Assembly: GCA_036556425.1 (NCBI GenBank)
Contig: DATBJJ010000103.1
Coordinates: 67,574 to 131,573, forward strand
Source: Vicinamibacterales bacterium
GTDB taxonomy: Bacteria > Acidobacteriota > Vicinamibacteria > Vicinamibacterales > 2-12-FULL-66-21
DNA length: 64,000 bases
Reading direction: 5' to 3'
The position numbers were made by a program, and so were the translations under genes. This document shows positions 1 through 46,500 of this stretch, piece by piece. Below the pieces are notes generated by a model, which was not told the DNA's origin, searched no databases, and saw only the letters and a program-made list of their open reading frames with translations. Numbering within the stretch: position 1 is the first letter of the stretch; every line of letters begins with the position of its first letter.

Positions 1-2
1 AA

Positions 3-722
3 GCCAAGCGCAAGCGCGAAGAGGCCGAAGCGCGCCGCAGGCGCGAGGAAGAGGAACGCAAGCGGCTCGAGGCCGAAGCGGAGCGCAAGCGGCTCGAAGC
101 GGAGGCGACGCGAAAGCGCCTCGCCGCCGAAGTCGAACGGAAGCGCCAGGAAGCGGAAGCCAAGCGCAAGCGCGAAGAAGAAGCGGCGGCCGAGCGCCGG
201 CGCCTCGAGGCGGAGGCGGAAGCCGCGCGTCAGCGCGAAGCCGAGATCAAGCGCGAAGCCGAACGCCAGCGCGAAGCGGAGCGCAAGCGGGAGGCGGAGC
301 GTTTGCGCCTGGCCGTCGAAGCCGAGCAGGCGCGCAAGCGCGAAGCGGCCGAAGCGGAACGCCGTCGTCAAGAGGAAGCGGCTCGAGAGGAGGAAGCCTC
401 ACACGTCGATCGTTTCGCCGAGTTCCGCGCGGATCACGACGAGCCGACAGGCATCCTGCGCCTGATGCCGCTCAACGGATGGGCGCGGGCCGAGACGAGC
501 CGAAACGGCGATGAGCCGGCCGCCACGGACGATCTGCAGCACTTGATCGAAGGGCTGCGCATTCCGACGAACGTGGCCGCGATCAGTTATCCCCAAGGCT
601 GCCGCATTCGCCGCGTCCGCGTGCGGGCGCAAAAGCAGGCCGCGAGCCACGGCGAGAGGCGCAGCCCGCTCATCGTCTCCCGCCGCGCGCTGCGCGACGC
701 GCCGGACGACGCGCGATCGTAA
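3..722 (+). CDS. 5'-truncated CDS: K/R/E/A-rich charged-repeat (coiled-coil-like) protein with a non-repetitive C-terminal domain
   Basis: The frame of ORF 303..722 stays open to the window edge (stop TAA 720-722). It translates as AKRKREEAEARRRREEEERKRLEAEAERKRLEAEA... An exact 22-nt repeat lies at 1-22 and 157-178. CGCAAGCGGCTCGA occurs at 57-70 and 84-97. Confidence 0.7.
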   Translation, partial: AKRKREEAEARRRREEEERKRLEAEAERKRLEAEATRKRLAAEVERKRQEAEAKRKREEEAAAERRRLEAEAEAARQREAEIKREAERQREAERKREAERLRLAVEAEQARKREAAEAERRRQEEAAREEEASHVDRFAEFRADHDEPTGILRLMPLNGWARAETSRNGDEPAATDDLQHLIEGLRIPTNVAAISYPQGCRIRRVRVRAQKQAASHGERRSPLIVSRRALRDAPDDARS

Positions 723-723
723 G

Positions 724-2202
724 GTGCGCGCGTCGCCGATTGCGCTTTGCCGCGTGACGATGTGGGCGTTCATCGCGCTCGTCGTCACCACGACCATCGC
801 CGACGCGGATCTCTGGGGCCACCTGCGCTTCGGCCTGGACGTGCTCGCGTCGAAGTCGCTCCACACGAGCGATCCCTACTCGTTCACGGCCGATCGGCCG
901 TGGATCAACCATGAATGGTTGTCCGAGCTGTTGATGGCCGGCGCGTACGCCACGCTCGGATCGCTCGGCCTCGGACTCCTGAAGGTTGCGACGATCGGGA
1001 TCGTCTTCACCACGCTCGCGGCGACCGCGCGCGAAGAGCACGCGCGTCCGCTCGCGCGCGATCTCTTCATCGCGCTCGCGGTCTTCGTGTCGTACAGCCG
1101 CACGCAAGTCGTCAGGCCGCAGCTGTTCTCGGTCGCCGTGTTCTGCACGATCCTTTATCTCCTTCGGCAGGCGGATCGCGGCCGACCGAAAGCGCTTTGG
1201 TTCGTACCTCTGTGCTTCGTGGCGTGGGCGAATCTGCACGGTGGCTGGATTGTCGGCGTGGCGGTGCTGGGCGTATGGATCGCAGGAGACTGGCTCGAGC
1301 AGCCAACGCTGAATCGTGCCGTGATGCTCGCGAGCGTCGGCCTGCTCTCGATTGCTGCGACGCTGATCAATCCGTACGGGTTGGGACTCTGGCAGTTCGT
1401 GATGGAGACGGTGCGGCCGGCGCGGCCCGACATCACCGACTGGAAGCCGTTGCTGCAATTGCCGCCGGCGGTCCTCGCGATCGAAGCGATTCTGCCGGTC
1501 GTCGCGCTCGCCGCGTGGTGGAAGTCGCGGGCGCTCTATCGTCCGGTCGCGCGCGACCTCGCCGTGCTCGCGCTGCTGACGATCGCGACCTTCCGCGTCG
1601 GCCGGGTCGACGCCTTCCTTCAGGTCGCGATCGCGTTCGTGCTCGCGCGGCCGATCCTCGCGCTGTTCAACTCGCTCGATTTCAACCTGCGGCCGAGCCT
1701 CACACGCGAGTCGACGGCGGTTGCCGTCCTCGCCGCGTGCTTGGCGTTATACGTCGGCGCCGCCGCGGTCCGGAATCTCCGCGTCATTCGCGTCGAGGGG
1801 TACTGGATCCCGGATCGCACGGCGGCGATGCTCCTGCGCGACGCGCGGCCCGGCGCGAAGATCCTCACCTGGTTCGATTGGGGTGAATATGCGGTGTGGC
1901 AGCTCTCACCCGCCGGGATCCGCGTTTCGATGGACGGCCGGCGCGAAACCGTCTACAGCGATCGCGTGACGCAAGACCATCAGCGGTTCTACGCCGGGAA
2001 CTTGGACATGGTCGACTATCCCGATCGCATCGGCGCCGATCACGTCTGGCTGCCGTCGAACTTTCCAATGATCGAACCGCTGACGCGCAACGGATGGGCA
2101 AAGGTGCTCGACACCGGCAAGTCCGTCGTGCTCGCGCGGAACGGAACGCCGATCGAGCACCGTCCGGTCGCCGAGGGCGACAAGATCTTTCCCTGGCCGT
2201 AA
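724..2202 (+). CDS. Polytopic integral membrane protein with a C-terminal soluble domain; possibly a GT-C-fold glycosyltransferase-like protein
   Basis: 492-aa ORF with many hydrophobic helices and an acidic ADADLW motif just after the first helix. The C-terminal ~130 aa are hydrophilic. GTG 724 lies 1 nt after the upstream stop; ATG 760 is an alternative start. The functional call is weak. Confidence 0.45.
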   Translation: MRASPIALCRVTMWAFIALVVTTTIADADLWGHLRFGLDVLASKSLHTSDPYSFTADRPWINHEWLSELLMAGAYATLGSLGLGLLKVATIGIVFTTLAATAREEHARPLARDLFIALAVFVSYSRTQVVRPQLFSVAVFCTILYLLRQADRGRPKALWFVPLCFVAWANLHGGWIVGVAVLGVWIAGDWLEQPTLNRAVMLASVGLLSIAATLINPYGLGLWQFVMETVRPARPDITDWKPLLQLPPAVLAIEAILPVVALAAWWKSRALYRPVARDLAVLALLTIATFRVGRVDAFLQVAIAFVLARPILALFNSLDFNLRPSLTRESTAVAVLAACLALYVGAAAVRNLRVIRVEGYWIPDRTAAMLLRDARPGAKILTWFDWGEYAVWQLSPAGIRVSMDGRRETVYSDRVTQDHQRFYAGNLDMVDYPDRIGADHVWLPSNFPMIEPLTRNGWAKVLDTGKSVVLARNGTPIEHRPVAEGDKIFPWP

Positions 2203-2356
2203 GCGTCATCGCCGGTCATTCCGCACCGGCAGGATTTGCGATACCTCAGAGTTTGGTCGTACGAAGAATCTGCGACCACTGATTCATCCAGCGCCGGGTT
2301 CTCGCGTAATTTCCGTCAACCGCTCGACGGCATGAGCGTTGCCTCACGCCCGCGGC

Positions 2357-4795
2357 ATGACGCCGCACGAGCGACGAACGTGGCTAACGGGCTCGCAGGT
2401 CTTCGTTCGCGGCCGGCGTTGGCGGCTCGCGGGCACGATCGCCGGCGAGGATTGCGACGCGCTTCGCTTGATCGCGCTCGGCGCATCTGCGGCAGCTCCA
2501 TCGCTGACGATCCTCGTTCCGTTCGATCGCCCAACGGTTCGGCAGAACGCGACAGCCATCAAAGTCCTCAGGCCGCGCCGCTGGCTCCACGAGCTCGATC
2601 GCGTCCTCGCGAACCTGCATCCGTTCGGCGCGCTGTCGGAGACGGCGCGCGCGAGGATTCGCCTGATCGCGTATCAGCTCGAGCCCGCCCTTGCGGTACT
2701 CCGCGACGGCGCCACTCGTCTCTTGATCGCTGACGCCGTCGGCCTCGGCAAAACGATTCAGGCCGGCGTGCTCCTCGCCGAACTGCACGCCTCAAACGAT
2801 GGCTTTCGCGCTATCGTGATTGTCCCTGCCGGCTTGCGCGAGCAATGGGCGGCCGAGCTTCGCTCGCGGCTCAATCTCGCCGCCGCGGTCGTCGACGCCG
2901 CCTGGCTGCGCCACGCGCTCGCGGATCGTCCGCCCGACGTGAACCCATGGTCGCTGCCAGGCATCTACGTCGCGTCGCACGATTTCGTGAAGCGCGCCGA
3001 AGCGCTCAAGCCCCTCGAGGACGTCACCTGGGATCTCGCGATCGTCGACGAAGCGCATCACGCGAGCCTCGGCACGGACCGCCGCGCCGCGATCGACGCG
3101 ATTGCTTCGCGAAGCCTTCGCGTGGTGCTGCTCACGGCGACGCCGCCGCGCGATCCGTTGGAGTTCCAGGCGCTCTGCAGAATCGGACGTGAGGGGGAAT
3201 CGGGAGAGTCGCCCGCGCTGTTCGCGCGCCAGAGAGCGGATGTCGAATCGAGCGTCCCGAGACGGAGCACGGTGCTCTGTGTAACGCCGTCTCCAGCGGA
3301 AGCGCGCATGCACGCGCTGCTGGACCGCTACACCAAAGAGGTCTGGAAGGAAGCGCGCGCGCGCGATGACGAGGGAGCGCGGCTTGCGTCGATCGTGCTG
3401 CGCAAGCGGGCGCTGTCGAGCGCCGGCTCGCTCGCGGCGTCTGTCGACCGCCGGCTGACGCTGCTCGTCTCTCCGGGTGCCGAGCAGATCGCACTGCCGC
3501 TCGACGATCGCGACGAGGATCCGCTCGACGACGACGTTCCCGCGAGCGCGCTCGCGGTTCCAGGTCTTGCGGACGGCCGGCGTGAGCGGCGATGGCTGTC
3601 GGCGATCGCGGAAGCCGCCCGCAGCGCGGCTCGCGCGGAAACGAAGGTCGCGTATCTCCTGCGCCTGCTCCGGCGGGTGCGAGAACCCGTCATCGTGTTC
3701 ACCGAGTATCGCGACACGCTGTTGCGGCTGCAGCGGCATGTGTCCGCGACCGGGCGACCGGTCGTCGTTCTGCACGGAGGAATGGATGCCATCGAGCGGT
3801 CCCGCGTGCCGCGCGCGTTCGATTCCGGGGCGCTGACGCTCCTCGCGACCGATGCGGCCGCCGAGGGCCTGAATCTCCAGCGCCATTGCCGCGTTGTCGT
3901 TCACTTCGAGCTGCCGTGGAATCCGGCTCGGCTCGAGCAGCGCGCCGGCCGCGTCGATCGCATTGGTCAAACCCGCCGCGTCCACGAGATCGCCCTCGTC
4001 GCGTCGTCCACCGCCGAGCGGCTCGTGATCGCGCCGCTCACGATCAAGGCGAGTCAAAGTGGTGAGCCAGTGGGGCGGACGCCGATGCTCGGCGCGCTCA
4101 CGGAATCTCGCGTCGCTGCCGCAGTGATGGCTGGAATATCGGAGCTCCGCAAGTCGGTCGCCACGCCGCGACCGCCGCGATCGACGGTCTCGGTCGAAGC
4201 CATCCGGGAGGCCGAGCGCCTCGAACATGTTCGCGCGCTGTCGAGGCGGTCGCCTGCGATTCGAGAAGCCGCGGCGATTCGGGACGCTCCATTCATCACG
4301 CGGCTGACGCGGAACAGAGCGAACGACGGGTATCTCGCGCGTGCGCGGGCATCGCTAGTGTTGCTGTACTCGATCGCTCTCGAATCGAGCGATGGACGGC
4401 GGGCGCACGAAGAGATTCTCGCGCTGGCGGTGCCGCCGATGGCCAAGTGTTCTCCGAGTCGGCGCATGGAGCTTCGAGCGTTATTCGAGCCGGACTCCCG
4501 CGCGTCGGGCGCCATCGGTCAAGTCGTCGAGGACAAGTGCCGGGAGATCGCCGGACGCGTCAAGGCGGCAGACCATCGGCGACGGCAGCGGCTCGAGGAA
4601 CGAAGCCGTGCGATCGACACGATCAAACGATCCGCCGCACGGGTCCTCGTCCAACTCGCGTTGTTCTCCCGTCGCCGCCGGCAGGACGCGGAGCGCGATC
4701 CCGCGCCTGCGCCGGTCGAAACTCAGAATCCGCCGCCATTGGAGATTCGCGCGCGGCTCATTGCAGGCGTCGTGATCGACGGGAGGCGCCGGTGA
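2357..4795 (+). CDS. SNF2/RapA-like superfamily-2 helicase (DEAH box) with uncharacterised N- and C-terminal regions
   Basis: Motifs DAVGLGKT (I), DEAHH (II), LLTATP (III), LATDAAAEGLNLQ (V) and QRAGRVDRIGQ (VI). The N-terminus has a VFVRGRRWRL Tudor-like pattern. Start is ATG 2357, or TTG 2339. Confidence 0.88.
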   Translation: MTPHERRTWLTGSQVFVRGRRWRLAGTIAGEDCDALRLIALGASAAAPSLTILVPFDRPTVRQNATAIKVLRPRRWLHELDRVLANLHPFGALSETARARIRLIAYQLEPALAVLRDGATRLLIADAVGLGKTIQAGVLLAELHASNDGFRAIVIVPAGLREQWAAELRSRLNLAAAVVDAAWLRHALADRPPDVNPWSLPGIYVASHDFVKRAEALKPLEDVTWDLAIVDEAHHASLGTDRRAAIDAIASRSLRVVLLTATPPRDPLEFQALCRIGREGESGESPALFARQRADVESSVPRRSTVLCVTPSPAEARMHALLDRYTKEVWKEARARDDEGARLASIVLRKRALSSAGSLAASVDRRLTLLVSPGAEQIALPLDDRDEDPLDDDVPASALAVPGLADGRRERRWLSAIAEAARSAARAETKVAYLLRLLRRVREPVIVFTEYRDTLLRLQRHVSATGRPVVVLHGGMDAIERSRVPRAFDSGALTLLATDAAAEGLNLQRHCRVVVHFELPWNPARLEQRAGRVDRIGQTRRVHEIALVASSTAERLVIAPLTIKASQSGEPVGRTPMLGALTESRVAAAVMAGISELRKSVATPRPPRSTVSVEAIREAERLEHVRALSRRSPAIREAAAIRDAPFITRLTRNRANDGYLARARASLVLLYSIALESSDGRRAHEEILALAVPPMAKCSPSRRMELRALFEPDSRASGAIGQVVEDKCREIAGRVKAADHRRRQRLEERSRAIDTIKRSAARVLVQLALFSRRRRQDAERDPAPAPVETQNPPPLEIRARLIAGVVIDGRRR

Positions 4796-7700
4796 GCGGC
4801 GTTCAGCAAGGACGCATTCCGGGAATGCGCGGCTCGCTCCTATCGCAAGACGCGCTCGTCGACGCGGTGCCGGATCGGCTTCGAGGTCTCCTCGACGAGA
4901 GCGGCCGTGCGCGTGCGAGACGGCACTTGCGGCGTTGGCATCTCCCGCTTCGCCGCCAGCTCGGACCGGCGTCCGCGCCGCGCACGATTCACGACAGGCT
5001 CGCGGCGCCGCTCTTCGCGCAGCTCGGATACCGCGTGCTGCCAGACGCCAGCGCCCCGGCTCGATCGGGAACCCTGCACAGTCTCCTGACAGTGGCCGGA
5101 CGCACGGTCGCCGTTCTCGTCGTCGCCGGTTGGGGCGACGACGCGGCGGCGCGCTGGCGCGAATCCGTCCACTACGGCATCGCGCACGACGTGCGATGGT
5201 GCTTCCATCTCGCCGGTCCATCGCTTCGGATCGTCGACTGCGCGCGGACCTACTCACGGCAGTATGTCGAGCTCGAGCTCGATGCTGCGTTCGACGACGA
5301 GCGCGCCTTTGCGGTGTTGTGGGGGTTGCTGCGGGCCTCTGCCGCCGACGGCGGACTGCTCGAGCGGGCGATCGCGATCTCGGAAGATCATCGCGCCGTC
5401 GTTCGATCGTCGCTGCAGACGGGCGTCGACAGCGCGCTGCTCCATCTGCAGGGCGCGTTTGCCGCGGCGGCGCGCTCACGCCGCCGGCATGCGCCGGATC
5501 GCGCCGTCCAGTCCGCCTTCGACGAGGCGCTCATCGTCATCTATCGAATTCTCTTTCTGCTCTTCGCCGAGGCCCGCGGCCTCGTGCCGCGATGGCATCC
5601 GATCTTCCGCGACGGCTACACGATCGAGGCGCTTCGGCATCCGATCGAAACGCTGCCGCGACCGCGGGGTTTGTGGGAGACCATCCAATCGATCGCGCGG
5701 CTCGCGCATCGGGGGTGCCGCATCGGCGCGCTGCGTGTGACGCCCTTCAACGGCCGGCTCTTCTCGCCGACCGAGTCGCCGCTCGCGGATTCCGTTCCGC
5801 TCGACGACGGTGTCGTTCGTCAGGCGCTGCTCGCGCTGACGACGCGGCGAGCGCATGGTGGCCGTCAACGGATCGCGTATGGCGATCTTGGCGTCGAGCA
5901 GCTCGGCGGCGTGTACGAGCGCGTGCTCGACCTCGAGCCCAGGTCGATCCGCCGAGACTCGCGAAAGTCGACCGGATCGTTCTACACGCCGCGGGCGCTC
6001 ACGGAGTTCGTCATTCGGCGCGCGCTCGCGCCGCTCGTCGAGCGCGCCTCCGCCGAGGAGATCCTGGCGCTGCGCATTCTGGACCCGGCGATGGGCAGCG
6101 GCGCGTTTCTGGTAGCGGCCTGCCGGTATCTGGCGGCGGCGTACGAGCGCGCGCTCGTTCGCGAGGGGCCCGGCGGCAACGACGAGATCGACGAGCGCGA
6201 TCGCGCGGACTTCCGCCGGCTGGTCGCGCAGCAATGTCTCTTCGGCGTCGACGTCAATCCGATGGCCGTCCAGCTCGGACGGCTCTCGTTGTGGCTGGCA
6301 ACACTGGCGGCGGATCGTCCGCTCACGTTTCTCGATCACCGCCTGCGCGCCGGCAACAGCCTCGTCGGCGCGACGCCCGAAGACCTGTCGCGGCAGGCGC
6401 CCGGCGGACGCACGCGCGCGGCGCGCGCCGTGCCGCTGCCGCTCTTCGACGATCCCGCGCGCGACGCCGGAATCCTCGACGCCCTCGCCATTCGACGCTC
6501 GATCGCGGTGGAGCCAGGCGACACGCTGATCCAGGTGCGGGCGAAGGAGCACGCGCTGACGAGGCTCGCGCAGGAGAACGCGCCGCTCGCGCGTTGGAAG
6601 CGCGCGTGCGATCTGTGGTGCTCGTACTGGTTCCCTCCTGCGAGCCGGCGTCGCATCGCGGTACCGTTCGGACCGCTCGCCGATGCGATCTTCGGGCGCG
6701 GCAGCTTGCCGCCGCATCTCGCCGCCCCGGTTCTGGACGACGTCCGATCGGTGGCCGAGCGCGAGAAGTTCTTTCACTGGCCGTTCGAGTTCCCCGAAGT
6801 CTTCCTCGCCGGCGGCAGATCGGGATTCGATGCGGTCATCGGAAACCCGCCGTGGGAAATGCTGCGCGGCGATCGAGGAGACGCGGATCGCCGCAGGTCC
6901 GCGCGCGATGCCGCATCCGTGCTGACCGGTTTCGCGCGCGGCTCCGGAGTCTACTCACTCCAAGGCGACGGCCATGCGAATCTCTACCAACTCTTCCTCG
7001 AGCGCATGATGTCGCTCGCGCGTCCGGGTGGACGGCTGGGCGTCATCCTGCCGTCAGGCCTCGCGACGGATCAGGGAGCCGGACCGCTGCGCCGCTACGC
7101 TTTCGATCGAACGGCAATCGACACGTTCGCCACGATCGAGAACCGCGAAGGAATCTTTCCGATTCATCGTGGGCTGAAGTTCCTGCTGCTGACGACAACG
7201 AAGGGCGCGCCAACGAGTTCGGTGCCGTGCAGATTTGGTTTGCGCGCGCCGGCGCAGTTGGATCGCGTACGAGAACTGGGCATCGACGCGGAAGCCGTGA
7301 TGGTGTCGCGACGGCTTCTCGACCGAACGGGCGGACGCGATCTCGCGGTGCCGGACGTTCGGTGCCGCGCGGACGTGGAGATCTTGAGTCAGCTTGCCTT
7401 CGCGTTTCCGGCTCTCGGCGACGCGAACGGCTGGAACCTCGCGTTCGGCCGCGAGCTGAATGCCACCGACGACCGGCCGCACTTCGTCCGCATGCCGGAG
7501 CGCGGCGCGCTCCCAATCGTCGAGGGCAAGCTCGTCACGCCGTTTAGGGTCGACCTGAGCCGCGCTCGATTGGGAGTCCCACGCGCGGCGGCAGCGACGC
7601 TGCTCGATCCCGCGCGGACCTTCGATCGTCCTCGCCTTGCGTACCGCGACGTCGCCGCGGCGACCAACCGTCTCACGCTCATCGCCGCGATCGTCCCGGC

Positions 7701-8076
7701 CGGCGCGGTTACCACCCATACACTGTTTTGCGCGAAAGCGCCGCTGGATGCGGAATCTCTCAGTTACCTATGCGGGATGTTCAACAGCTTCGTCGCGAAT
7801 TATCTGGTACGGTTTCATGTGGGGACGCACGTGACCGCGGGCATCATCAGCCGACTGCCGATGCCGCGGCCGGCGCACGGGTCGCGCGAGCTCGCCGAGA
7901 TCGCCTCGCTCGCGGACAACCTCATCACTAATTCGAATGATGGCGATACACGTGCCCGTTTACAAGCTGCGGCGGCCCGCGCCTACGGACTGTCGCCGGC
8001 GCAATTTCGGCGCGTCCTCGAGACGTTTCCGCTCGTCCCACGCGTGGATCGCGACGCGGCGCTCGCGGCGTTCTGA
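4792..8076 (+). CDS. Large Eco57I/type-IIG-like N6-adenine DNA methyltransferase with a target-recognition-like C-terminal half and an unassigned N-terminal domain
   Basis: Motifs FYTPRALTEFV, ILDPAMGSGAFLV (SAM motif I), FGVDVNPMAV and GNPPW (motif IV). GTG 4792 overlaps the helicase stop TGA 4793-4795 (GTGA). ATG 4825 is an alternative start. The ORF portion upstream of 4792 is Arg-rich and overlaps the helicase, so it is not coding. Confidence 0.85.
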   Translation: MSGVQQGRIPGMRGSLLSQDALVDAVPDRLRGLLDESGRARARRHLRRWHLPLRRQLGPASAPRTIHDRLAAPLFAQLGYRVLPDASAPARSGTLHSLLTVAGRTVAVLVVAGWGDDAAARWRESVHYGIAHDVRWCFHLAGPSLRIVDCARTYSRQYVELELDAAFDDERAFAVLWGLLRASAADGGLLERAIAISEDHRAVVRSSLQTGVDSALLHLQGAFAAAARSRRRHAPDRAVQSAFDEALIVIYRILFLLFAEARGLVPRWHPIFRDGYTIEALRHPIETLPRPRGLWETIQSIARLAHRGCRIGALRVTPFNGRLFSPTESPLADSVPLDDGVVRQALLALTTRRAHGGRQRIAYGDLGVEQLGGVYERVLDLEPRSIRRDSRKSTGSFYTPRALTEFVIRRALAPLVERASAEEILALRILDPAMGSGAFLVAACRYLAAAYERALVREGPGGNDEIDERDRADFRRLVAQQCLFGVDVNPMAVQLGRLSLWLATLAADRPLTFLDHRLRAGNSLVGATPEDLSRQAPGGRTRAARAVPLPLFDDPARDAGILDALAIRRSIAVEPGDTLIQVRAKEHALTRLAQENAPLARWKRACDLWCSYWFPPASRRRIAVPFGPLADAIFGRGSLPPHLAAPVLDDVRSVAEREKFFHWPFEFPEVFLAGGRSGFDAVIGNPPWEMLRGDRGDADRRRSARDAASVLTGFARGSGVYSLQGDGHANLYQLFLERMMSLARPGGRLGVILPSGLATDQGAGPLRRYAFDRTAIDTFATIENREGIFPIHRGLKFLLLTTTKGAPTSSVPCRFGLRAPAQLDRVRELGIDAEAVMVSRRLLDRTGGRDLAVPDVRCRADVEILSQLAFAFPALGDANGWNLAFGRELNATDDRPHFVRMPERGALPIVEGKLVTPFRVDLSRARLGVPRAAAATLLDPARTFDRPRLAYRDVAAATNRLTLIAAIVPAGAVTTHTLFCAKAPLDAESLSYLCGMFNSFVANYLVRFHVGTHVTAGIISRLPMPRPAHGSRELAEIASLADNLITNSNDGDTRARLQAAAARAYGLSPAQFRRVLETFPLVPRVDRDAALAAF

Positions 8077-8116
8077 GATATAGTCACGAGATCTCGCGGA
8101 GAATTCTTTCTCGCCG

Positions 8117-9157
8117 ATGCCGTCCTCAGAAGATCGCGCTCCGGTCTGGGCCATCTGGCTGCTGATCGTGTTCGGCGCCGCGCAACCAGTCGCGTGGGCG
8201 CTCGGCGTCGGCCTTCCGCGCCACCCTCTCGCGCTCGTTCCGCTGCTCGTCGTCTGGATCGCCCTCCTCGCGCTCGCCGCGCTTGCCACGCGTCGAATCA
8301 CCGCGCTCACACAGCAGTTGATGCAGAAGCGGCAGGCGCACGCCGTCACGCTGAGCGAAGTCGATCAGCTGCAGACGCAGAACGCGATGCTCGACATCAT
8401 CGCGCGATCCGTCGACGTGCCGCTCGCGTTCCAAGCACTCGCGTCCCGCGTGGCGCGGCTCGTCTCATGCGATCGCGTCGGCCTCGCGCTGCTGTCTGAG
8501 GACGGCCGAGAGTTCCAGACCTACACCGCGCGCGTCCAGCAGGAGGAGCGCCGGTCGCGCCCGCGGCCGGAAATCGTCTTCAAGGTCGAGAGGACGCTGC
8601 TCGGGGAAGTCGTGCAATCGGGAAAGCCGATGCTCATCCCCGAGATCTCGAAGGTCGCGCCGGACTATCTCGACGCCAACATCCTCCTGACGTCAGGATT
8701 CAGCTCGGCGCTCCTCGTCCCGCTGGTCTCGCGCGGCCGCGCGGTCGGCACCCTCAACGTCGTCGCGCGCCAACCCCACGCGTTCACGCAGACGCACGTC
8801 GATGCGCTCCATCCGATCGCCGAGATCCTCGCGGTCGCTTGGGTCGCTCAGCAGCTGCACATGACGCTCGGCAAGCACCGGACGATGGAAGTGATGTCGG
8901 ATCTCACGCTGGCCGTCGCGGCGGAGATCAACGGCGCGCTGCAGACGATCATCGGGCACTGCGATTTGATCGAACGCGGCCAGTCCGATCCCGCGCTGCA
9001 GCGCGATTTGCGGACGATCACGGCGCAGGCGCAGCGGATCATGCTGCTCCTCGACAAAATGCGGACCGCCGCCCACGATCGCCTACGCGAGACGACGGAC
9101 GCGATCAGCCAGGAAGGGCTCACGGCGGGCGACGCCGTCGACGAGAAACACATCTAG
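8117..9157 (+). CDS. Membrane-anchored GAF-domain sensor with a DHp-like helix but no phospho-acceptor His and no ATPase domain (pseudo-histidine kinase)
   Basis: Two N-terminal hydrophobic helices are followed by a GAF-like core (CDRVGLALLSEDG...RAVGTLNVVAR). The H-box-like segment reads AVAAEINGALQTIIGH where kinases have aHEInNPL. The protein ends about 60 aa later. Confidence 0.6.
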   Translation: MPSSEDRAPVWAIWLLIVFGAAQPVAWALGVGLPRHPLALVPLLVVWIALLALAALATRRITALTQQLMQKRQAHAVTLSEVDQLQTQNAMLDIIARSVDVPLAFQALASRVARLVSCDRVGLALLSEDGREFQTYTARVQQEERRSRPRPEIVFKVERTLLGEVVQSGKPMLIPEISKVAPDYLDANILLTSGFSSALLVPLVSRGRAVGTLNVVARQPHAFTQTHVDALHPIAEILAVAWVAQQLHMTLGKHRTMEVMSDLTLAVAAEINGALQTIIGHCDLIERGQSDPALQRDLRTITAQAQRIMLLLDKMRTAAHDRLRETTDAISQEGLTAGDAVDEKHI

Positions 9158-9465
9158 CCCGCTCGCGCGCTGAGCGCGACGATCATCGTCACCGTCAGCT
9201 GCACGAGCACGACGGCGGTGACGAACACGAAGAACCAGTCGCGCATCCGCGCGTACTCGACGACGGAGAACAGGACGCGCATCGCCGGCGTCGCCATGAG
9301 AATCAGCAGGCCGACGCTCAGAAATCGAGGCGCGAGCGGCGTGCCCTGCGCACCGAGGAACAGCGCGAGCCCGCACACGAGCGCCGCCGCGCTGAGCGTG
9401 ATGCCCGCGAGGAACAGACGTCCGAGGCGGCGTTCGAGCCGCGCGATGCCGTGTTCGTTCTCCAT
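9154..9465 (-). CDS. DUF1634-like small membrane protein
   Basis: MENEHGIARLERRLGRLFLAGITL... has three hydrophobic helices. ATG 9465-9463 overlaps the TauE stop (ATGA). As I recall, this family is typically adjacent to TauE/SafE. Confidence 0.6.
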   Translation of the reverse strand: MENEHGIARLERRLGRLFLAGITLSAAALVCGLALFLGAQGTPLAPRFLSVGLLILMATPAMRVLFSVVEYARMRDWFFVFVTAVVLVQLTVTMIVALSARAG

Positions 9466-29228: not shown

Positions 29229-31844
29229 ATGGATGCCAGCCAAGGTGCTCTCGAGTATCGCGCGCTGACTCTCGTCGTCCTTCTGCTTTCCTACGGCGCA
29301 GTCGGCGCGCGCCAGCCCGCCGTCCGCATGGCCGTACCCCTCCCCGTCCCTTCCGAACAGCTCGCGGATTCCTTCGAGATGGTGTCGATCGATCGCGGTC
29401 ACTTCGTGCTGAACATCATCCGCACGCTGTTCGCGACGGGCGTGACCGAAGGCGATCTCAAGCAGCGCGCGAAGCTCCGCGCGTTGATCGACGGCGCCAC
29501 GGGCGCGCGCGGCGAGGCCGTCCCGCTTCCGCTCGACGCGTCGATCTGGCGCGAGACGCTTCTGCAGCGCAACGTGCCGGACGATCAGATCATGGGAGCG
29601 ATCCTCGCCGATCGACGCACGGCCCTCCTCTATCACGGACTGGCCGGCCTCGACGACGACACGCTGGCGTGGCTCGGCCCGGAGCGTGAGACGCTGCAGC
29701 ACTTGCTGAAGCATGCGGGGGCGTTCGCGGTGTTTGGTCCGAGCGTGCGCGTGCAGGCGGGAAAGATTCGAGTCCCCGGAGGAGCGGACGCCGAACCGTT
29801 GTGGCAAGAGATCGTCGGCGCCGATCCTGCGCGTCCCGCGGCGTTCGTGCGGCGACTCTTCGGCGACGAGGAAGGCCAACTCGCGTGGTTCTACGACTCG
29901 ATGGCGCAGCTCGACGAGAACCGGCTGCGATTCGCGCTGGGATCCCGACTGCCGGCGAACTCGCGCGCCGACCGCGTCCGCGCGCTCCTCGATGTGTTCG
30001 AGAACGGCGGCAGCGAATGGCGTCCCGAGGTCCAACCGTTCACGCGGCGTCCGCTCGATCCGGCGCTGACGCTGGCGCTCCTCGACGTCAACGCCGACGG
30101 GACGCTCGCGGGACCGTCGCCGCGCGCGTTTTGGGAGCGCGTCTTCGACGACGAGGCCAAGCCGATCGCGGCCGCCCCTCGTGATCTCGGTGCCGATGCA
30201 ACACCCGTCGACGCCGCATGGCTGACGGCACGAATTCACCGCGTGCCGCTCGACGTCGGACGGCGGCGTCTCGAGGTGTTTCTCTTCGGCCAGCGCGTGT
30301 TTCGCGACGTGCAGACGCCGGACGCCGTCACCACGACGGCGTTGCGCGCGCACCTGGCCTTCCCGTCGCTCCTCTCGACGCTCGAGCGCGCGGGCGTCAG
30401 GTCCGCGCAAACGATGGTCGCGGCCGCCACACGCGCGGAGTCGCTCACGCAAATCGGCGACGACGATCGGCGCCGCGTCGCGATTCTGGAATTTCAAGCG
30501 GCCGTCGGAATCCTCGAGCGCATGAATCGGGCGGGCAGCCTCGTGCGCGCGCAGTTCGAGGTCATGATTGCCGACCTCTCGAAGATCGAGCCGTCGGGCA
30601 AAGGGTACGAGGGCAAGCTCGGCGCGTGGCTCAAACGGGAGTTGGAGCGGCGATCCCGCCAGATGGTGGACGAGACGGCGGATCTTCTCGAGGACACGCT
30701 GCTCGCGGCGATGGCGGGCGCGGACGCGCACGCCGCCGACAGCCGCGTGATCGAATGGGAGGGGCGCTCGTATCGCGTGAATCCGGCGCGCGCGGAGCTC
30801 CTGCGGCTGCGGCGCATCCGCGAGCGGCAAGGCGGACTCTCGCTGACCGCCGCGCTCGACGGCGTGGCCGCTGAAAAGCAGAAGAAACAGGATCGAACCG
30901 AGGCGGCGCTGTCGGACACGCTCGTCTCGATTCTTTACGCGGCGTATCTCGGCGACCCCGACGGTCCCGCGGTCGCCAGCGGCAACATCGCGGTCAAGCA
31001 CGATCTGGCCGTCTCGAGCACGCTCGGCTGGCGCGGCGCATGGCGTCTGCCGTCGGAGGGCCACACGGGTCGGGGATGGCGCGTATCGGGATCGCTTCTC
31101 GGCCTCGACGTTGCGCTCGCGCGCATGGCGCTCCGCCGTCTCGACTCGAACGTCATGCCGCCGGAGCCGCGCCTCGTTTCCGCCGAGCGGCAGACGGCGG
31201 CGCTGTCGGTCGCGCTGCTCAATCCAGCGGCCTTGAGCGATGCCGCGCGAGACGAGATCTCGGCCGCGCTCGGACGTGGGCGCGCGCGGCTCGCGGCGGT
31301 CGACGGCGATCGACAGGCGATCGATGCCATCGCGCGCGACGCCGGTTTGAGCGCGTGGCGACGTGAAGCGCTCGCGTGGACCGCGACGCACGATCGCGAC
31401 AACCTCGCCTCGCAGCTGTCGCTCGTCGAGACGATGTGGCTCGGCAAGCCAAAGACGTCCGAAGCGATCTCGCTCGACGGATGGGGCGCGGCGGTGCTCC
31501 CGCTCAACGGCTGCGTCTGTCTGGCGATGCCGCGCGCGGCTCCGTGGGAAGCGCTCATCGGACGTCCGTCGCTCGGCCTGCTCGCGACGCGCGGCGCCGA
31601 CGTCGCGATCCTCGTCGCGGATACCCTTGCGGCTCTGAAGATGCCGGCGGAAATCGCTCCCGGCGTGATCGCGTTCGCGATGCAGGAGGTCATGGATCAG
31701 GCGCGGCCGTCGCACTTCGACGACTGGTCCGAGTTCACCCGCGCCGCGCGCGCGGTGCCGCGCGGCATGCTCGTCGATTACATCGCCGCCCAGGCCGCGG
31801 GCGGTCCGCTGCTTCCCGCGCGATCCATGCACGATCGCCACTGA
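29229..31844 (+). CDS. Large (871 aa) protein of unknown function with an N-terminal signal or anchor
   Basis: High GC3 in this frame, balanced amino-acid composition, and RBS GGGGAG at 29219-29224. The antisense ORF 29208..31850 is Arg-rich and rejected. I recognise no motif. Confidence 0.75.
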   Translation: MDASQGALEYRALTLVVLLLSYGAVGARQPAVRMAVPLPVPSEQLADSFEMVSIDRGHFVLNIIRTLFATGVTEGDLKQRAKLRALIDGATGARGEAVPLPLDASIWRETLLQRNVPDDQIMGAILADRRTALLYHGLAGLDDDTLAWLGPERETLQHLLKHAGAFAVFGPSVRVQAGKIRVPGGADAEPLWQEIVGADPARPAAFVRRLFGDEEGQLAWFYDSMAQLDENRLRFALGSRLPANSRADRVRALLDVFENGGSEWRPEVQPFTRRPLDPALTLALLDVNADGTLAGPSPRAFWERVFDDEAKPIAAAPRDLGADATPVDAAWLTARIHRVPLDVGRRRLEVFLFGQRVFRDVQTPDAVTTTALRAHLAFPSLLSTLERAGVRSAQTMVAAATRAESLTQIGDDDRRRVAILEFQAAVGILERMNRAGSLVRAQFEVMIADLSKIEPSGKGYEGKLGAWLKRELERRSRQMVDETADLLEDTLLAAMAGADAHAADSRVIEWEGRSYRVNPARAELLRLRRIRERQGGLSLTAALDGVAAEKQKKQDRTEAALSDTLVSILYAAYLGDPDGPAVASGNIAVKHDLAVSSTLGWRGAWRLPSEGHTGRGWRVSGSLLGLDVALARMALRRLDSNVMPPEPRLVSAERQTAALSVALLNPAALSDAARDEISAALGRGRARLAAVDGDRQAIDAIARDAGLSAWRREALAWTATHDRDNLASQLSLVETMWLGKPKTSEAISLDGWGAAVLPLNGCVCLAMPRAAPWEALIGRPSLGLLATRGADVAILVADTLAALKMPAEIAPGVIAFAMQEVMDQARPSHFDDWSEFTRAARAVPRGMLVDYIAAQAAGGPLLPARSMHDRH

Positions 31845-42224: not shown

Positions 42225-42273
42225 AGTGTGACTGCGCACGTGATTGTGTGACGCGAATCAAAAGAGGCACGTA

Positions 42274-43527
42274 ATGACAGGTCGGCGTTTGCATCATCTC
42301 GTTTCCCGGCAGGTATTCATTCCCGCCACCGTTCTTCTCCTCACGTCTTCGCTCGTGATTGGTTGCTCGACGAAAGCGGAGACGACGCTCGATGCGGCGA
42401 AAGCCGCCGAGCCGCTCGCGATCGCCACGGCTCCCGTCGAGAGCCGTTCGATCGATCGATACCTTCGCGTGACAGGATCGCTCGTCGCCGACGCCCAGGC
42501 GGAGGTCAGCGCGGAAACCGCCGGCCGCGTGATCGCGACGCCGGTGGAGCGCGGGACACGCGTCGCCGACGGCGCGCTGCTCGTCCGCATCTCGCCCTCG
42601 GAAACATCCGCGCAGCTTCAGGAAGCCGAAGCGAACGCCGCGCAGATCGAAGCGCGGCTCGGGCTCGACGGCAGCACGCCATTCGATCGCACGCGTGTTC
42701 CCGACGTGATCAACGCGAAGGCATCGCTCGATCTCGCGGAAGCGGAATTCAACCGCATGCGATCGCTCCTCGAACAGAAGGTGATCTCGCAGAGCGAGTT
42801 CGATCAACGCCGCACGCAGCTCGAGGCTGCGCGCCAGAGCTATCAGGCGGCGCAGAATCAGGCGGATCAATCCTATCGATCGCTCGAGGCCGCTCGCGCG
42901 CGGACCGCGCTCGCGCAGAAGGCGGTTGCCGATACGGCCGTGCGCGCGCCGATCAGCGGGCTCGTCGCCGAACGGCTCGTCAGCGTCGGCGACTACGTCA
43001 CGCGCGGCCAGCGCGTCGCGACGGTCGTTCGCGTCGATCCGCTTCGCGTCGAGCTGACCGTTCCCGAGCAGCACGTCTCGCTCGTGAAAGTCGGACAGCA
43101 GGTGCGCCTCACGGTCGACGCGTACCACGGCGAGGAATTCCCGGCGACCGTGAAGTTCATCTCGCCCGCGCTGCGATCCGATCAGCGCGCGCTGACGGTC
43201 GAAGCGATCGCGCCGAACGCGGACGGGCGGTTGAAGCCAGGCCTCTTCGCGACGGCGCTCGTGCGCCAGCCGGATGCGGCGCCGGCGCTTCTCGTCCCGG
43301 AATCAGCGGTGGAAACGATCGCCGGCACGAGTCGCGTGTACGTCGTCAAGGACGGCAAGAGCGCGCAAGGACCAAGCGGTCAAAAACAGCTAGAGGCCCG
43401 CATCGTCACGACCGGCGAGAAGCTCCAAGGTCAGATCGAGCTCACGACCGGTGTGTCGAAGGGTGACGTCGTGGCGTCCGAACCCAAGGGACGTTTGTCG
43501 GACGGCCAGTACGTGAAGGCTCGGTAA
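42274..43527 (+). CDS. Efflux RND periplasmic adaptor (membrane fusion protein), lipoprotein-type
   Basis: LLLTSSLVIGCS lipobox-like N-terminus, coiled-coil hairpin, and VRAPISGLVAERLVSVGDYV. RBS AAAGAGG at 42261-67. Confidence 0.88.
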   Translation: MTGRRLHHLVSRQVFIPATVLLLTSSLVIGCSTKAETTLDAAKAAEPLAIATAPVESRSIDRYLRVTGSLVADAQAEVSAETAGRVIATPVERGTRVADGALLVRISPSETSAQLQEAEANAAQIEARLGLDGSTPFDRTRVPDVINAKASLDLAEAEFNRMRSLLEQKVISQSEFDQRRTQLEAARQSYQAAQNQADQSYRSLEAARARTALAQKAVADTAVRAPISGLVAERLVSVGDYVTRGQRVATVVRVDPLRVELTVPEQHVSLVKVGQQVRLTVDAYHGEEFPATVKFISPALRSDQRALTVEAIAPNADGRLKPGLFATALVRQPDAAPALLVPESAVETIAGTSRVYVVKDGKSAQGPSGQKQLEARIVTTGEKLQGQIELTTGVSKGDVVASEPKGRLSDGQYVKAR

Positions 43528-43536
43528 GGTGTCGTC

Positions 43537-46500
43537 ATGCAGTGGCTCGCTTCAATCTCCGTTCGTCGTCCGGTCTTCGCGACCGTCATCACTCTCTCGC
43601 TGACCGTCGTCGGCGCCTTCGCGTTCACGCGCCTCGGCCTCGACCGGTTTCCCAAAGTCGACTTCCCGACCGTTGTCGTCACGACACGGTTCCCTGGTGC
43701 GGCACCCGAGGAAGTCGAGACCGAAGTCACCGACAAGATCGAGGAAGCGGTCAACACGATCAGCGGGATCGACGAGCTTCGATCGAATTCGTCGGAAGGC
43801 GTCTCGCAGGTCATCATCGCGTTCCTCCTCGAAAAGGACGGCGACGTTGCCGCTCAGGAAGTCCGCGATCGCGTGAACCGCGTGCTGCCGCTGCTGCCTC
43901 GAACGATCGAGCAGCCGACGGTCGAGAAGTTCGATCCCGATTCCGCGCCGGTCATGACGCTCGCGGTCTCCGCGCCCGCGCCCATCCGCGACATCACCGA
44001 ATACGCGGACAAGAAGCTGCGCCGTCAGCTCGAGAGCGTCAGCGGCGTTGGACAGGTCGTGGTCGTCGGCGGACGCGCCCGGCAGATCAACTTCCTCCTC
44101 GACGCCGACCGGCTGCGCGCTTACAACCTGACGGTCACCGACGTGTCTCGCGCGATTCAGATGCAGAACGCCGAGATTCCCGGCGGCCGCGTCGAGCAGG
44201 GCGCGACGGCCATGACGCTGCGCACGCGCGGCAGGGTCGGCGCGGTCGAACAGTTCGGCGACATCGTCGTGCGCCAGCGCGAAGGCCATCCGGTGCTGCT
44301 GCGCGACGTCGCGACGATCGAAGACGGCATGGCGGAGGCGGAGACGACCGCGAACCTCAACGGCGAGCCTGGCGTGATGCTCACGGTCCGCCGGCAGTCG
44401 GGGACGAACACCGTGCAGGTCGTCGACGCGGTCAAGGAGCGGCTCGCGGAAGTCTCCCCGCTCGCGCCGGCCGGATACCAAATCCGCGTCGTCCGCGATC
44501 TGTCGGAGTTCATCAAAGCATCGATCGCGAGCGTGGAGGAACATCTCGTCCTCGGATCGATTCTCGCGGCGGCCGTCGTGCTCGTCTTCCTGTGGAACTG
44601 GCGCTCGACGTTCATCGCCGCGGTGGCGATCCCGACGTCGATCATCGCGACCTTCGGCCTGATCTGGTATCAGGGCTTCACGCTCAACTCGATGACGATG
44701 CTCGCGCTCACGCTGGCGGTCGGCATCGTCATCGACGATGCGATCGTCGTGCTTGAGAACATCTATCGCTTCGTCGAGGAGAAGGGACGTCCGCCGATGC
44801 AGGCCGCGATCGAGGCGACGCGCGAAATCGGATTGGCCGTCCTCGCGACGACGCTGTCGCTCGTCGCGATCTTCGTGCCGGTCGGCTTCATGGGCGGCAT
44901 CGTCGGCCGCTTCATGACGAGCTTCGGATTCACGATGTCGTTCGCGATCCTCGTGTCGCTGCTCGTCAGCTTCACGCTCACGCCGATGCTCGCGTCGCGC
45001 TGGATCAAGATGCATCCGCGGCGTGAAGACGCCGAGGGTCACGCGATCGAAGAGAAGACGTCGAGGGACAAGGGTTTCTTCGGCGCGCTCGATCGGCGGT
45101 ATACGTCGATTCTCGGCTGGTCGCTCGCTCATCGCGGCATCGTTGCGGGAATCGCGGTGCTCGTGCTGCTCAGCAGCGTTCCGCTGTTCATGATCGCGAA
45201 CAAGAACTTCCTGCCGAGCGACGATCAATCGGAGTTCGAGGTCGGACTTCGAGCGCCCGAGGGCACGAGCCTCGAGGCAACCGAAATCATCGCGAATCGG
45301 ATCGCGAGCCGCATTCAGCAGGTGACGGGCGTCAGCTACACGCTCGTCACGGTCGCGGACGATCCGGCGCGGACGCAGAACGTCGGCACGATCTACGTGC
45401 GGCTCACGCCGGTCCACGAGCGCGATCTCGATCAGTTCGCCATCATGAATGCGGTTCGCGCGGAAGTGCTTCCGAACGTCGGCGTGCCGAACCTGCGCAC
45501 CGGCGTGCGTCCGGTTGCGACGATCGGCGGCGGGGGCAATCAGAACGCGGAGATTCAGTTCACGATCAGCGGTCCCGATCTGAAGAAGCTCGAGCAATAC
45601 GCGAGCGCGGTCATCGCCGAAGCGAAAAAAGAGCACGGCGTCGTCGACGTCGATACGTCGCTGAACGTCGGCAAGCCCGAGCTGTCGGTGCATCTCGACC
45701 GCCTGAAGGCGGCGGACCTCGGCGTGCAGATCTCCGACGCCGCGGAAGCGCTGCGCCTGCTCGTCGGCGGCGACGAGATCACGACCTACAACGAAGGAGG
45801 CGAGCAATACGAGGTGCACGTGCGGGCGGTCGAGGGCAACCGGCAGACGGCCGAGGCCATCGGCCAGCTGACCGTGCCGTCGAGCACCGTGGGCAGCGTG
45901 CCGCTCGTCAACATCGCCGAGCTCACGCGCGGCACGGCGCCGTCGGAAATCAACCGCCTCAACCGTCAGCGTCAAGTCACGGTGTACGCTGGACTGCTGC
46001 AGGGCGTGTCGCAGGTTCCGGCGATGGACGCAATGACGCGCGCGGCGTCCGGGCTTGGCATGGGGCCCGGCTACAGCACGCGGTTTGCGGGCCGATCGCG
46101 CGAGCTTGGCCGCGCGGCTCAAAACTTCCTGATTGCGTTCGGGCTCTCTCTCGTGTTCATGTACTTGATCCTCGCGGCGCAGTTCGAGTCGTGGCTCCAC
46201 CCCATCACGATCCTGCTGTCGCTGCCGCTGACGTTGCCGTTCGCGCTCTTGTCGATCATCATCGCAGGACAGTCGCTGAACATCTTCTCGGCGCTCGGGC
46301 TCTTGGTGCTGTTCGGTGTCGTCAAAAAGAACTCGATCCTGCAAATCGATCACGCGAATCAACTGCGTGAGCGCGGCATGGAGCGCGATCGCGCGGTGCT
46401 GCAGGCGAGCCGCGATCGGCTGCGGCCGATCCTCATGACGACGCTTGCGTTCGTGGCGGGTATGATCCCGCTGGTGTTGTCGAGCGGCGTGGGGTCGGCG

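Follow-up and report, generated by a model that had tools for sequence, protein, structure and literature searches.

What does a DNA motor do beside a DNA methyltransferase when the two genes stand apart from any recognisable defence system? The question is raised by a 64,000-nucleotide (nt) stretch of DNA from a Vicinamibacterales bacterium (GCA_036556425.1, contig DATBJJ010000103.1, positions 67,574 to 131,573, forward strand), here called the window, in which a gene for an SNF2-family ATPase is directly followed by one for an N6-adenine DNA methyltransferase. An earlier note on this DNA had taken the two for a defence-island-type module. Our best explanation, held at roughly even confidence on sequence comparison, is that they represent the motor and methylase module of class 1 DISARM and ARMADA with no YprA/DrmA helicase-nuclease found nearby. 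The pair would be a vertically inherited chromosomal unit in Vicinamibacterales that writes N6-methyladenine (m6A) on the host chromosome, in an epigenetic or housekeeping role like that of orphan methylases. This role was rated most likely because no effector was found and because the pair behaves as core genes do.

The gene pair and its chromosomal locus

The SNF2-family (RapA/BrxHII/DrmD-like) ATPase gene occupies 2357..4795 on the forward strand (812 amino acids (aa); ATG at 2357, TGA at 4793-4795). It is followed by the gene for a PglX/DrmMI-like gamma-class N6-adenine DNA methyltransferase at 4792..8076 (+; 1094 aa; GTG at 4792, stop at 8074-8076). The stop of the first and the start of the second share the tetranucleotide GTGA (4792..4795, +), a translational coupling read straight from the sequence. 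The GTG start is supported because homologue alignments begin at residue 9 and because the 4-nt RTGA overlap is kept in 41 of 76 related loci; most of the remaining junctions fall between -10 and +25 nt. As part of the explanation given above, and with the confidence attached to it as a whole, the two genes would form one translationally coupled operon encoding an SNF2 DNA translocase and an N6-adenine methyltransferase. An identical 812-aa SNF2 protein is present in the database (P0121). Promoter, terminator and tandem-repeat scans of 2000-9400 gave nothing exceeding shuffled background, and no phase-variation repeats were detected there.

Relatives are numerous within the lineage. More than 120 full-length methylase homologues were found at 57-72% identity, and a similar number for the motor at ~48-63%. 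When one genome per GTDB species was scanned, 407 species encoded a relative; the best 80 of these 407 were all from Vicinamibacterales or Acidobacteriota metagenome-assembled genomes (MAGs), full length and 46-73% identical. The pair itself was found in at least 80 species-level Vicinamibacterales genomes. As to whether the two genes co-occur elsewhere, a check suggested in the earlier note, the SNF2 gene lies immediately upstream of the methylase gene in each of the 83 loci for which upstream DNA is present. Reverse searches from homologues of the neighbouring GAF gene found the methylase upstream in 7/7 contexts.

The surroundings are conserved as well. The common order is Tad/Flp pilus genes, a receiver/coiled-coil protein, SNF2, methylase, (PsrBC-PsrA), GAF/HisKA, DUF1634, TauE, metallo-beta-lactamase (MBL)-rhodanese, Ser/Thr kinase, ApbA, amidohydrolase and M14 peptidase, and in some relatives the pair is tightly packed with metabolic genes. 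Loci whose methylase is more like that of the window also tend to have more similar flanking proteins (six proteins, Spearman 0.60-0.90), a signature of vertical descent. The variable context expected of a defence island was thus looked for and a syntenic housekeeping locus was seen instead: the pair is largely syntenic core, at the same position in dozens of Vicinamibacterales species, co-diverging with its neighbours and carrying a conserved recognition domain. The defence-island proposal is unsupported in these respects, and that reading of the pair is weakened.

Base composition was compared across related loci. The window has ~67% G+C, and overall GC at the site of the pair is without anomaly. 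G+C at third codon positions (GC3) is 0.78-0.80 for the SNF2 and methylase genes versus 0.84-0.87 for their neighbours. This deficit of ~0.05 relative to conserved neighbours is seen again in 99% of 67 related loci, which makes it a lineage-wide feature of the two genes and no indication of recent transfer. Recent horizontal transfer into this genome was accordingly discarded, there being no overall GC anomaly and a GC3 deficit that is lineage-wide.

Split SNF2 open reading frames (ORFs), and sometimes split methylase ORFs, were observed in several related loci (L003 7430-10004, L005, L007, L027, L037 and L085), almost all of them in nanopore-based MAGs. One such contig, L085, was checked closely, and its neighbouring kinase, permease and amidohydrolase genes are also frameshifted. 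SNF2 pseudogenisation in relatives was considered and set aside. Given the nanopore-based assemblies and the frameshifted neighbours in L085, the split ORFs are probably assembly errors rather than pseudogenes.

The motor and the methylase

The motor matches Pfam Helicase_C (1.1e-20), ResIII (1.5e-09) and SNF2-rel_dom (2.5e-09). Its best PADLOC model is DrmD (1.6e-71), followed by BrxHII (3e-57), and the best model for the methylase is DrmMI (PDLC02643, 3.7e-98), bearing out the resemblance to a DrmD and DrmMI pair remarked on earlier. Lower-scoring PADLOC models for the pair comprise BrxHII, DrmA-labelled models, HmaA, DpdE and type IIG models. The top NCBIfam match of the motor is DISARM_DrmD (NF038317), at 268.8 bits against an equivalog cut-off of 610 bits. 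Among solved structures, RapA (HepA), an SNF2 ATPase associated with RNA polymerase, comes closest by both profile and fold. A profile search against the PDB gave RapA at 4e-47, with eukaryotic remodellers trailing far behind, and Foldseek matched the AlphaFold model (predicted local distance difference test, pLDDT, 74) to RapA 6bog over its entire length (E 1.7e-22). Unlike RapA, which has ~968 aa, the motor has 812 aa and is coupled to a methylase, and it scores 173.2 bits with NCBIfam RapA PRK04914, whose equivalog cut-off is 576.

Four segments can be distinguished in the motor. A small N-terminal beta-strand domain (aa 14-62; 2396..2542, +) is modelled with strands at 14-17, 20-29, 34-40 and 49-54 (pLDDT ~66-87) and has no Pfam match; from the Foldseek alignment (~1035 columns) we infer that it corresponds to the N-terminal domain of RapA. 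ATPase lobe 1 (2648..3181, +; Pfam ResIII/SNF2-rel_dom/DEAD at aa 105-275) contains Walker A GLGKT (2741-2755) and DEAH (3047-3058). Lobe 2 (3644..4036, +) is the Helicase_C match (aa 430-537) and contains motif VI, QRAGRVDRIGQ. Across 34 homologues the SNF2 motifs GLGKT (aa 129-133), DEAH (231-234), TATP (260-263) and QRxGRxDRxGQ (528-538) are invariant, including residues G129, G131, K132, D231, E232, A233 and H234 of lobe 1 and Q528, R529, G531, R532, D534, R535, G537 and Q538 of motif VI. The family-specific C-terminal region (aa 600-812; 4154..4792, +) is modelled as a beta-sheet with a long helix and is poorly conserved, with few invariant residues (A615, E618, H684, R749 and Q766). It has no Pfam match, and no nuclease fold occurs among the top Foldseek matches in the PDB.

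A link to the 'pilus expression-regulating Snf2 helicase' was considered, Tad pilus genes being nearby. The NCBIfam match reaches 45.9 bits against a cut-off of 1100 and covers the generic helicase C-terminal domain only; a literature search on this link returned nothing relevant, and the candidate was dropped.

The methylase matches Pfam Eco57I (3.3e-21), N6_Mtase (3.3e-12) and MmeI_Mtase (8e-07). PglX models match weakly (9.4e-12 in PADLOC), and NCBIfam BREX_1_MTaseX gives 42.4 bits against a cut-off of 500, with other BREX types lower still. By structure, the best Foldseek match of the methylase model (pLDDT 76) is nevertheless BREX PglX/BrxX (8c45, E 7.8e-15, ~1070 columns), further PglX structures being 8q56, 8zek and 9ewz. 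CamA, M.BseCI and M.TaqI follow. The match to CamA (7lni; E 3.4e-12, TM-score on target ~0.63) shows both the catalytic core and the target-recognition part to be alike. The motifs FYTP (397-400), DPAMGSGAF (431-439) and NPPW (685-688) are invariant in 28 homologues. The proteins had been described beforehand as an 812-aa SNF2 ATPase with all helicase motifs, whose stop overlaps the start of a ~1090-aa gamma-class adenine methylase with FYTP, DPAMGSGAFL and NPPW at GTGA 4792-4795; ORFs, Pfam matches and invariant motifs agree with this description throughout.

A family-specific N-terminal domain (aa 1-230; 4792..5481, +) opens the methylase, with an alpha-beta-beta-beta-alpha-beta core modelled at pLDDT ~77-94 over aa 11-150. 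The helical linker domain (aa 231-385; 5482..5946, +) carries the signature YRILFLLFAEARGL...FNGRLF and the invariant blocks Y251-P270 and F319-P326; its mean identity is 64% across 57 relatives, and the PADLOC DrmMI model PDLC02642 covers aa 171-380. The methyltransferase catalytic domain (aa 386-800; 5947..7191, +; Pfam Eco57I aa 481-789, N6_Mtase aa 370-503) holds FYTP (5980-5991), DPAMGSGAF (6082-6108) and NPPW (6844-6855). Its segments are 69%, 40% and 59% identical, an insert at aa 531-660 being less conserved. The C-terminal target-recognition domain (aa 801-1094; 7192..8073, +; NCBIfam Alw26I-family model aa 678-1089) is modelled mostly at pLDDT 85-96. Its mean identity of 46-53% across the 57 relatives, compared with 69% for the catalytic core, and its many invariant residues up to the C-terminus mean that it is not hypervariable. 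This conservation is suggestive, though only suggestive, of a conserved specificity.

Known systems and competing explanations

A search for an effector was confined in the window to the ~30 larger ORFs, with PADLOC run on 12 of them. No DrmA, DUF1998 (DrmB), PLD (DrmC) or other defence gene was present among these, and neither DUF1998 nor PLD was matched in any ORF scanned, recurrent neighbours in related loci included. PglZ and BrxC gave no match among the scanned window ORFs or the recurring neighbours checked, and BrxL, BrxA and BrxB were not found among the scanned ORFs. No helicase, nuclease or known defence protein was found among neighbours tested in related loci, distant clades included. 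The earlier remark that neither DrmA/B/C nor a recognisable nuclease gene lies alongside therefore stands for the ORFs and neighbours covered, and a nuclease was detectable in neither the SNF2 protein nor the methylase. Two positions had been candidates for an effector. Downstream of the methylase, ~24 relatives carry a PsrBC/PsrA-like oxidoreductase insert and others xanthine-dehydrogenase-like genes, with no defence gene among them. Upstream and in distant clades, the genes that keep recurring nearby encode peptidases, a GH31 glycosidase, a histidine kinase, a radical-SAM protein and 2-oxoglutarate dehydrogenase.

The pair cannot be counted as DISARM, ARMADA, BREX or type ISP/IIG, since for each of them a defining component was sought and not found, in agreement with the earlier view that it could not be assigned to a described system. 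Class 1 DISARM shares the order of SNF2 then adenine methylase, with a DrmMI-like methylase directly after a drmD-like gene. It differs in that DrmA, DrmB and DrmC were not found nearby, the motor scores far under the DrmD cut-off, the pair occupies a syntenic chromosomal core locus rather than a mobile island, and both proteins fall short of their plasmid counterparts in length. ARMADA types I and II consist of ArmA (a BrxHII/RapA-like helicase), ArmB (a PglX-like methylase) and ArmC (a YprA helicase), with or without ArmD. Its two-gene module of RapA-like SNF2 protein and PglX-like methylase is present here, but the defining YprA-like helicase was not found in the scanned window ORFs or related loci. 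The target-recognition domain is conserved here, unlike armB, a variable gene that differs even within Escherichia coli. For BREX, PglX is the best full-length structural match and the motor matches BrxHII of type 3 BREX; both PglX and the present protein are large gamma-class methylases with their own target-recognition domain and without a nuclease. However, the PglZ and BrxC core genes were not found, the PglX threshold is not reached, so that the fold alone is in common, and PglX's N-terminal domain is a helical bundle whereas that of the methylase is alpha/beta.

Orphan adenine methyltransferases offer a further comparison. Dam and CcrM are lineage-conserved examples, as is CamA of Clostridioides difficile. 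The methylase resembles such enzymes in its structural match to CamA, in being lineage-conserved at a fixed locus with no cognate nuclease found, and in its conserved recognition domain. Those enzymes act alone, whereas the present one is coupled to an SNF2 ATPase and keeps a large PglX-like architecture.

In the preferred explanation, the SNF2 protein and the methylase would be made together and act as a complex. The target-recognition domain would read a single short motif common to the order, which, as PglX, MmeI and DrmMI suggest by analogy, is probably asymmetric. By analogy too, ATP spent by the motor may serve to load the methylase on duplex DNA, move it there or activate it. Such motor-dependent methylation is proposed because PglX by itself is without methyltransferase activity (PMC11341690) and because ARMADA II defence needs both ArmA and ArmB, their Walker and NPPW motifs included (10.1101/2025.09.15.676423). 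DrmMI methylates the asymmetric sequence ACACAG, and more completely with the whole system present (10.1101/2021.12.28.474362). The outcome would be m6A marks on the host chromosome, and these would serve not classic restriction but most likely an epigenetic or housekeeping role of orphan-methylase type. A literature search on methylation in Vicinamibacterales gave nothing useful, and in the literature searched no description was found of the motor and methylase module as a stand-alone, vertically fixed unit.

Several points weigh against a housekeeping role. All characterised relatives of the module (DISARM, ARMADA and BREX) are anti-phage, and we know of no such pair for which a housekeeping role has been shown. 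The only basis for a complex of the two proteins is the overlap of their genes. The 83 related loci came from methylase searches and so hold the methylase by construction, while the reverse test comprised n=7 contexts. The persistently lower GC3 is compatible with an ancient foreign origin, or with weak codon bias. To these is added the prospect of partner genes elsewhere in the genome, which enters the alternatives below.

The strongest of these is a self-sufficient defence without an effector, which we regard as possible but distinctly less probable. Here the methylase would mark self DNA, and the SNF2-methylase complex would bind or translocate on unmethylated incoming DNA, blocking its replication in a BREX-like manner or handing it to host nucleases; the pair would be retained order-wide. 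The profiles matched best belong to defence systems (DrmD, BrxHII, DrmMI and type IIG enzymes), the methylase has its structural twin in BREX PglX, and ARMADA requires both the SNF2 protein and the methylase, NPPW included. BREX and DISARM also function without an obvious or essential nuclease, and GC3 lower than that of neighbours hints at a foreign origin. These arguments face a syntenic housekeeping locus and co-divergence with neighbours, a recognition domain conserved where armB varies within E. coli, tight packing with metabolic genes in some relatives, and neighbours among which no defence or mobile genes were found. The described systems that contain the module, moreover, all need further components.

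A second alternative, which we consider unlikely, sees in the pair the modification half of a DISARM/ARMADA-type system that is split, with the YprA-like helicase-nuclease and any PLD/DUF1998 partner elsewhere in the genome. Such defence systems nearly always form contiguous operons, which counts against it. The scanned ORFs of the 64-kb window showed no second large helicase, and neither did the 10 kb on either side of the pair in the 83 related loci (family clustering with Pfam and PADLOC spot checks). Plasmid relatives speak for it. The closest are only ~26-30% identical, and in all four that were inspected (Meiothermus, Acidithiobacillus, Rhodococcus and Nostoc) a DEAD/DEAH helicase of ~1700-1840 aa adjoins the pair. 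This three-gene layout is that of class 1 DISARM and ARMADA, as judged from sequence, and its surroundings hold insertion sequence elements, toxin-antitoxin genes, NACHT or KAP genes, or an adjoining brxL. In the literature, too, the BrxHII/RapA-like helicase and the methyltransferase that resembles PglX are a module common to DISARM I and ARMADA that always comes with a YprA-family helicase (10.1101/2025.09.15.676423). The plasmid proteins are longer than those of the window, at ~920-950 versus 812 aa for the motor and ~1280-1375 versus 1094 aa for the methylase, a difference that again disfavours a split system.

Far less probable is a type ISP/IIG-like restriction-modification enzyme split in two, with the alpha/beta N-terminal domain of the methylase as its nuclease. 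Type ISP (LlaGI/LlaBIII) and type IIG/IIL (MmeI, Eco57I) enzymes share with the methylase Pfam Eco57I and MmeI_Mtase matches and a helical linker, methylase and target-recognition domain in one polypeptide. Type ISP enzymes also pair a motor with a methylase, and the set of motor, methylase and target recognition parallels LlaGI-type enzymes. PADLOC type IIG models match as well. The N-terminal domain model, moreover, has elements (helix 63-77, strands 81-84, 94-101 and 104-112, helix 118-131, strands 136-141 and 144-149) whose predicted alpha-beta-beta-beta-alpha-beta order is that generally known for PD-(D/E)xK nucleases. Here, however, the motor is a separate polypeptide of SNF2/RapA type and no nuclease catalytic motif was found. 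The third strand reads V-T/P-x-W-G in place of E-x-K in all relatives, distant ones too, and a D...(D/E)xK motif is absent from the domain in 58 close and 17 more distant relatives. The conserved polar residues are only S18, R64, D68, R146, D149, R152, R156 and H200, of which D68 and D149 are the only well-conserved acidic ones. The domain has no Pfam match, and no Pfam nuclease appeared even at E <= 10. A profile search recovered 608 clusters among 1.84 billion representatives, a small family. In the full-length matches listed, the domain stands at the N-terminus of ~1030-1220-aa proteins, and among the top 150 matches, all of the same architecture or fragments, no nuclease-active ancestral form was found. 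A nuclease in this domain was therefore rejected, catalytic residues and Pfam match both missing from an otherwise nuclease-like element order, and with it falls the earlier suggestion of a split type ISP enzyme. A fixed-specificity restriction enzyme at a syntenic core locus would also be atypical.

Scarcely credible is that the pair has lost its function and is decaying, as what is left of an earlier defence system: several relatives have split SNF2 ORFs, but almost all of these are in nanopore-based MAGs, with neighbours frameshifted too in L085, and both genes are full length, with catalytic motifs invariant across 46-73% identical relatives and their start/stop coupling conserved.

Neighbouring genes and significance

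The genes on either side of the pair agree with the earlier identification of the flanks as a membrane protein and a GAF sensor. Upstream, 724-2202 (+) encodes a 492-aa polytopic membrane protein of no Pfam family, also seen in related locus L001 (5874-7397). In the closest relatives its gene lies between the coiled-coil and SNF2 genes; elsewhere it is placed differently, in some on the opposite strand. Window positions 1-719 (+) encode the C-terminus of a ~762-aa receiver/coiled-coil protein. We read the L001 copy (3544-5850), which has no Pfam family, as having a receiver-like N-terminus and, after it, a coiled-coil of great length and high charge made up of EAEAERKRLEAEA-type repeats. In ~19 related loci the receiver/coiled-coil gene stands upstream of the SNF2 gene and shares its strand.

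Downstream of the methylase, after a 40-nt gap in the window, lies the GAF/HisKA gene (8117-9157, +), in whose product no histidine-kinase ATPase domain was seen. Its start overlaps the stop of the upstream gene by 4 nt in several relatives (L087 6988, L088 8768, L089 9001 and L090 1650), the overlapped gene being the methylase in some and a PsrA-like oxidoreductase in others. Given these overlaps, SNF2-methylase-(PsrBC-PsrA)-GAF may be one tightly packed operon. In ~24 loci a ~4.3-kb gene pair, absent from the window, lies between methylase and GAF (L007 13371-17686; L046 12225-16476). Its products, PsrBC/PsrA-like, are a membrane subunit in which 4Fe-4S and NrfD parts are fused (~505 aa) and a molybdopterin oxidoreductase (~920 aa). 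The region looks like a sulfur-metabolism neighbourhood, since this oxidoreductase pair adjoins TauE and MBL-rhodanese.

Two further ORFs of the window stood out. A single uninterrupted ORF of 1571 aa (43537-48252, +) contains a complete AcrB-type resistance-nodulation-division (RND) transporter domain (aa 5-1019, E 1e-284) and an OEP domain (aa 1346-1551, E 2e-47). It looks like a fusion of an RND transporter and an outer-membrane factor, and is preceded by a HlyD-type adaptor gene (42244-43527). An 871-aa ORF (29229-31844, +) has a coding-like GC3 of 0.84 and no Pfam or PADLOC match.

The SNF2 and PglX-like methylase pair carries a caution for automated annotation. DrmD and DrmMI matches alone would flag hundreds of Vicinamibacterales genomes as partial DISARM, despite the behaviour of the two as a core gene pair. 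Moreover, no part of class 1 DISARM and ARMADA is less well understood than this pair, which is seen there only with the YprA helicase. In this large and abundant soil order it would be stand-alone, coupled, catalytically intact as judged by its motifs, and vertically fixed. It may thus provide a naturally occurring minimal form for studying what service the motor renders the methylase, be it loading, processivity or activation, and a possible case of a defence module domesticated as a housekeeping epigenetic system. More tentatively, and with appreciably less confidence than the explanation we favour, an anti-phage motor and methylase module may have been exapted in a Vicinamibacterales ancestor into an order-wide epigenetic system, in which m6A deposition requires, or is gated by, the SNF2 remodeller. 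If so, it would be a bacterial counterpart of eukaryotic SNF2-dependent DNA methylation (DDM1/LSH-type), possibly linked to transcription through its RapA-like motor.

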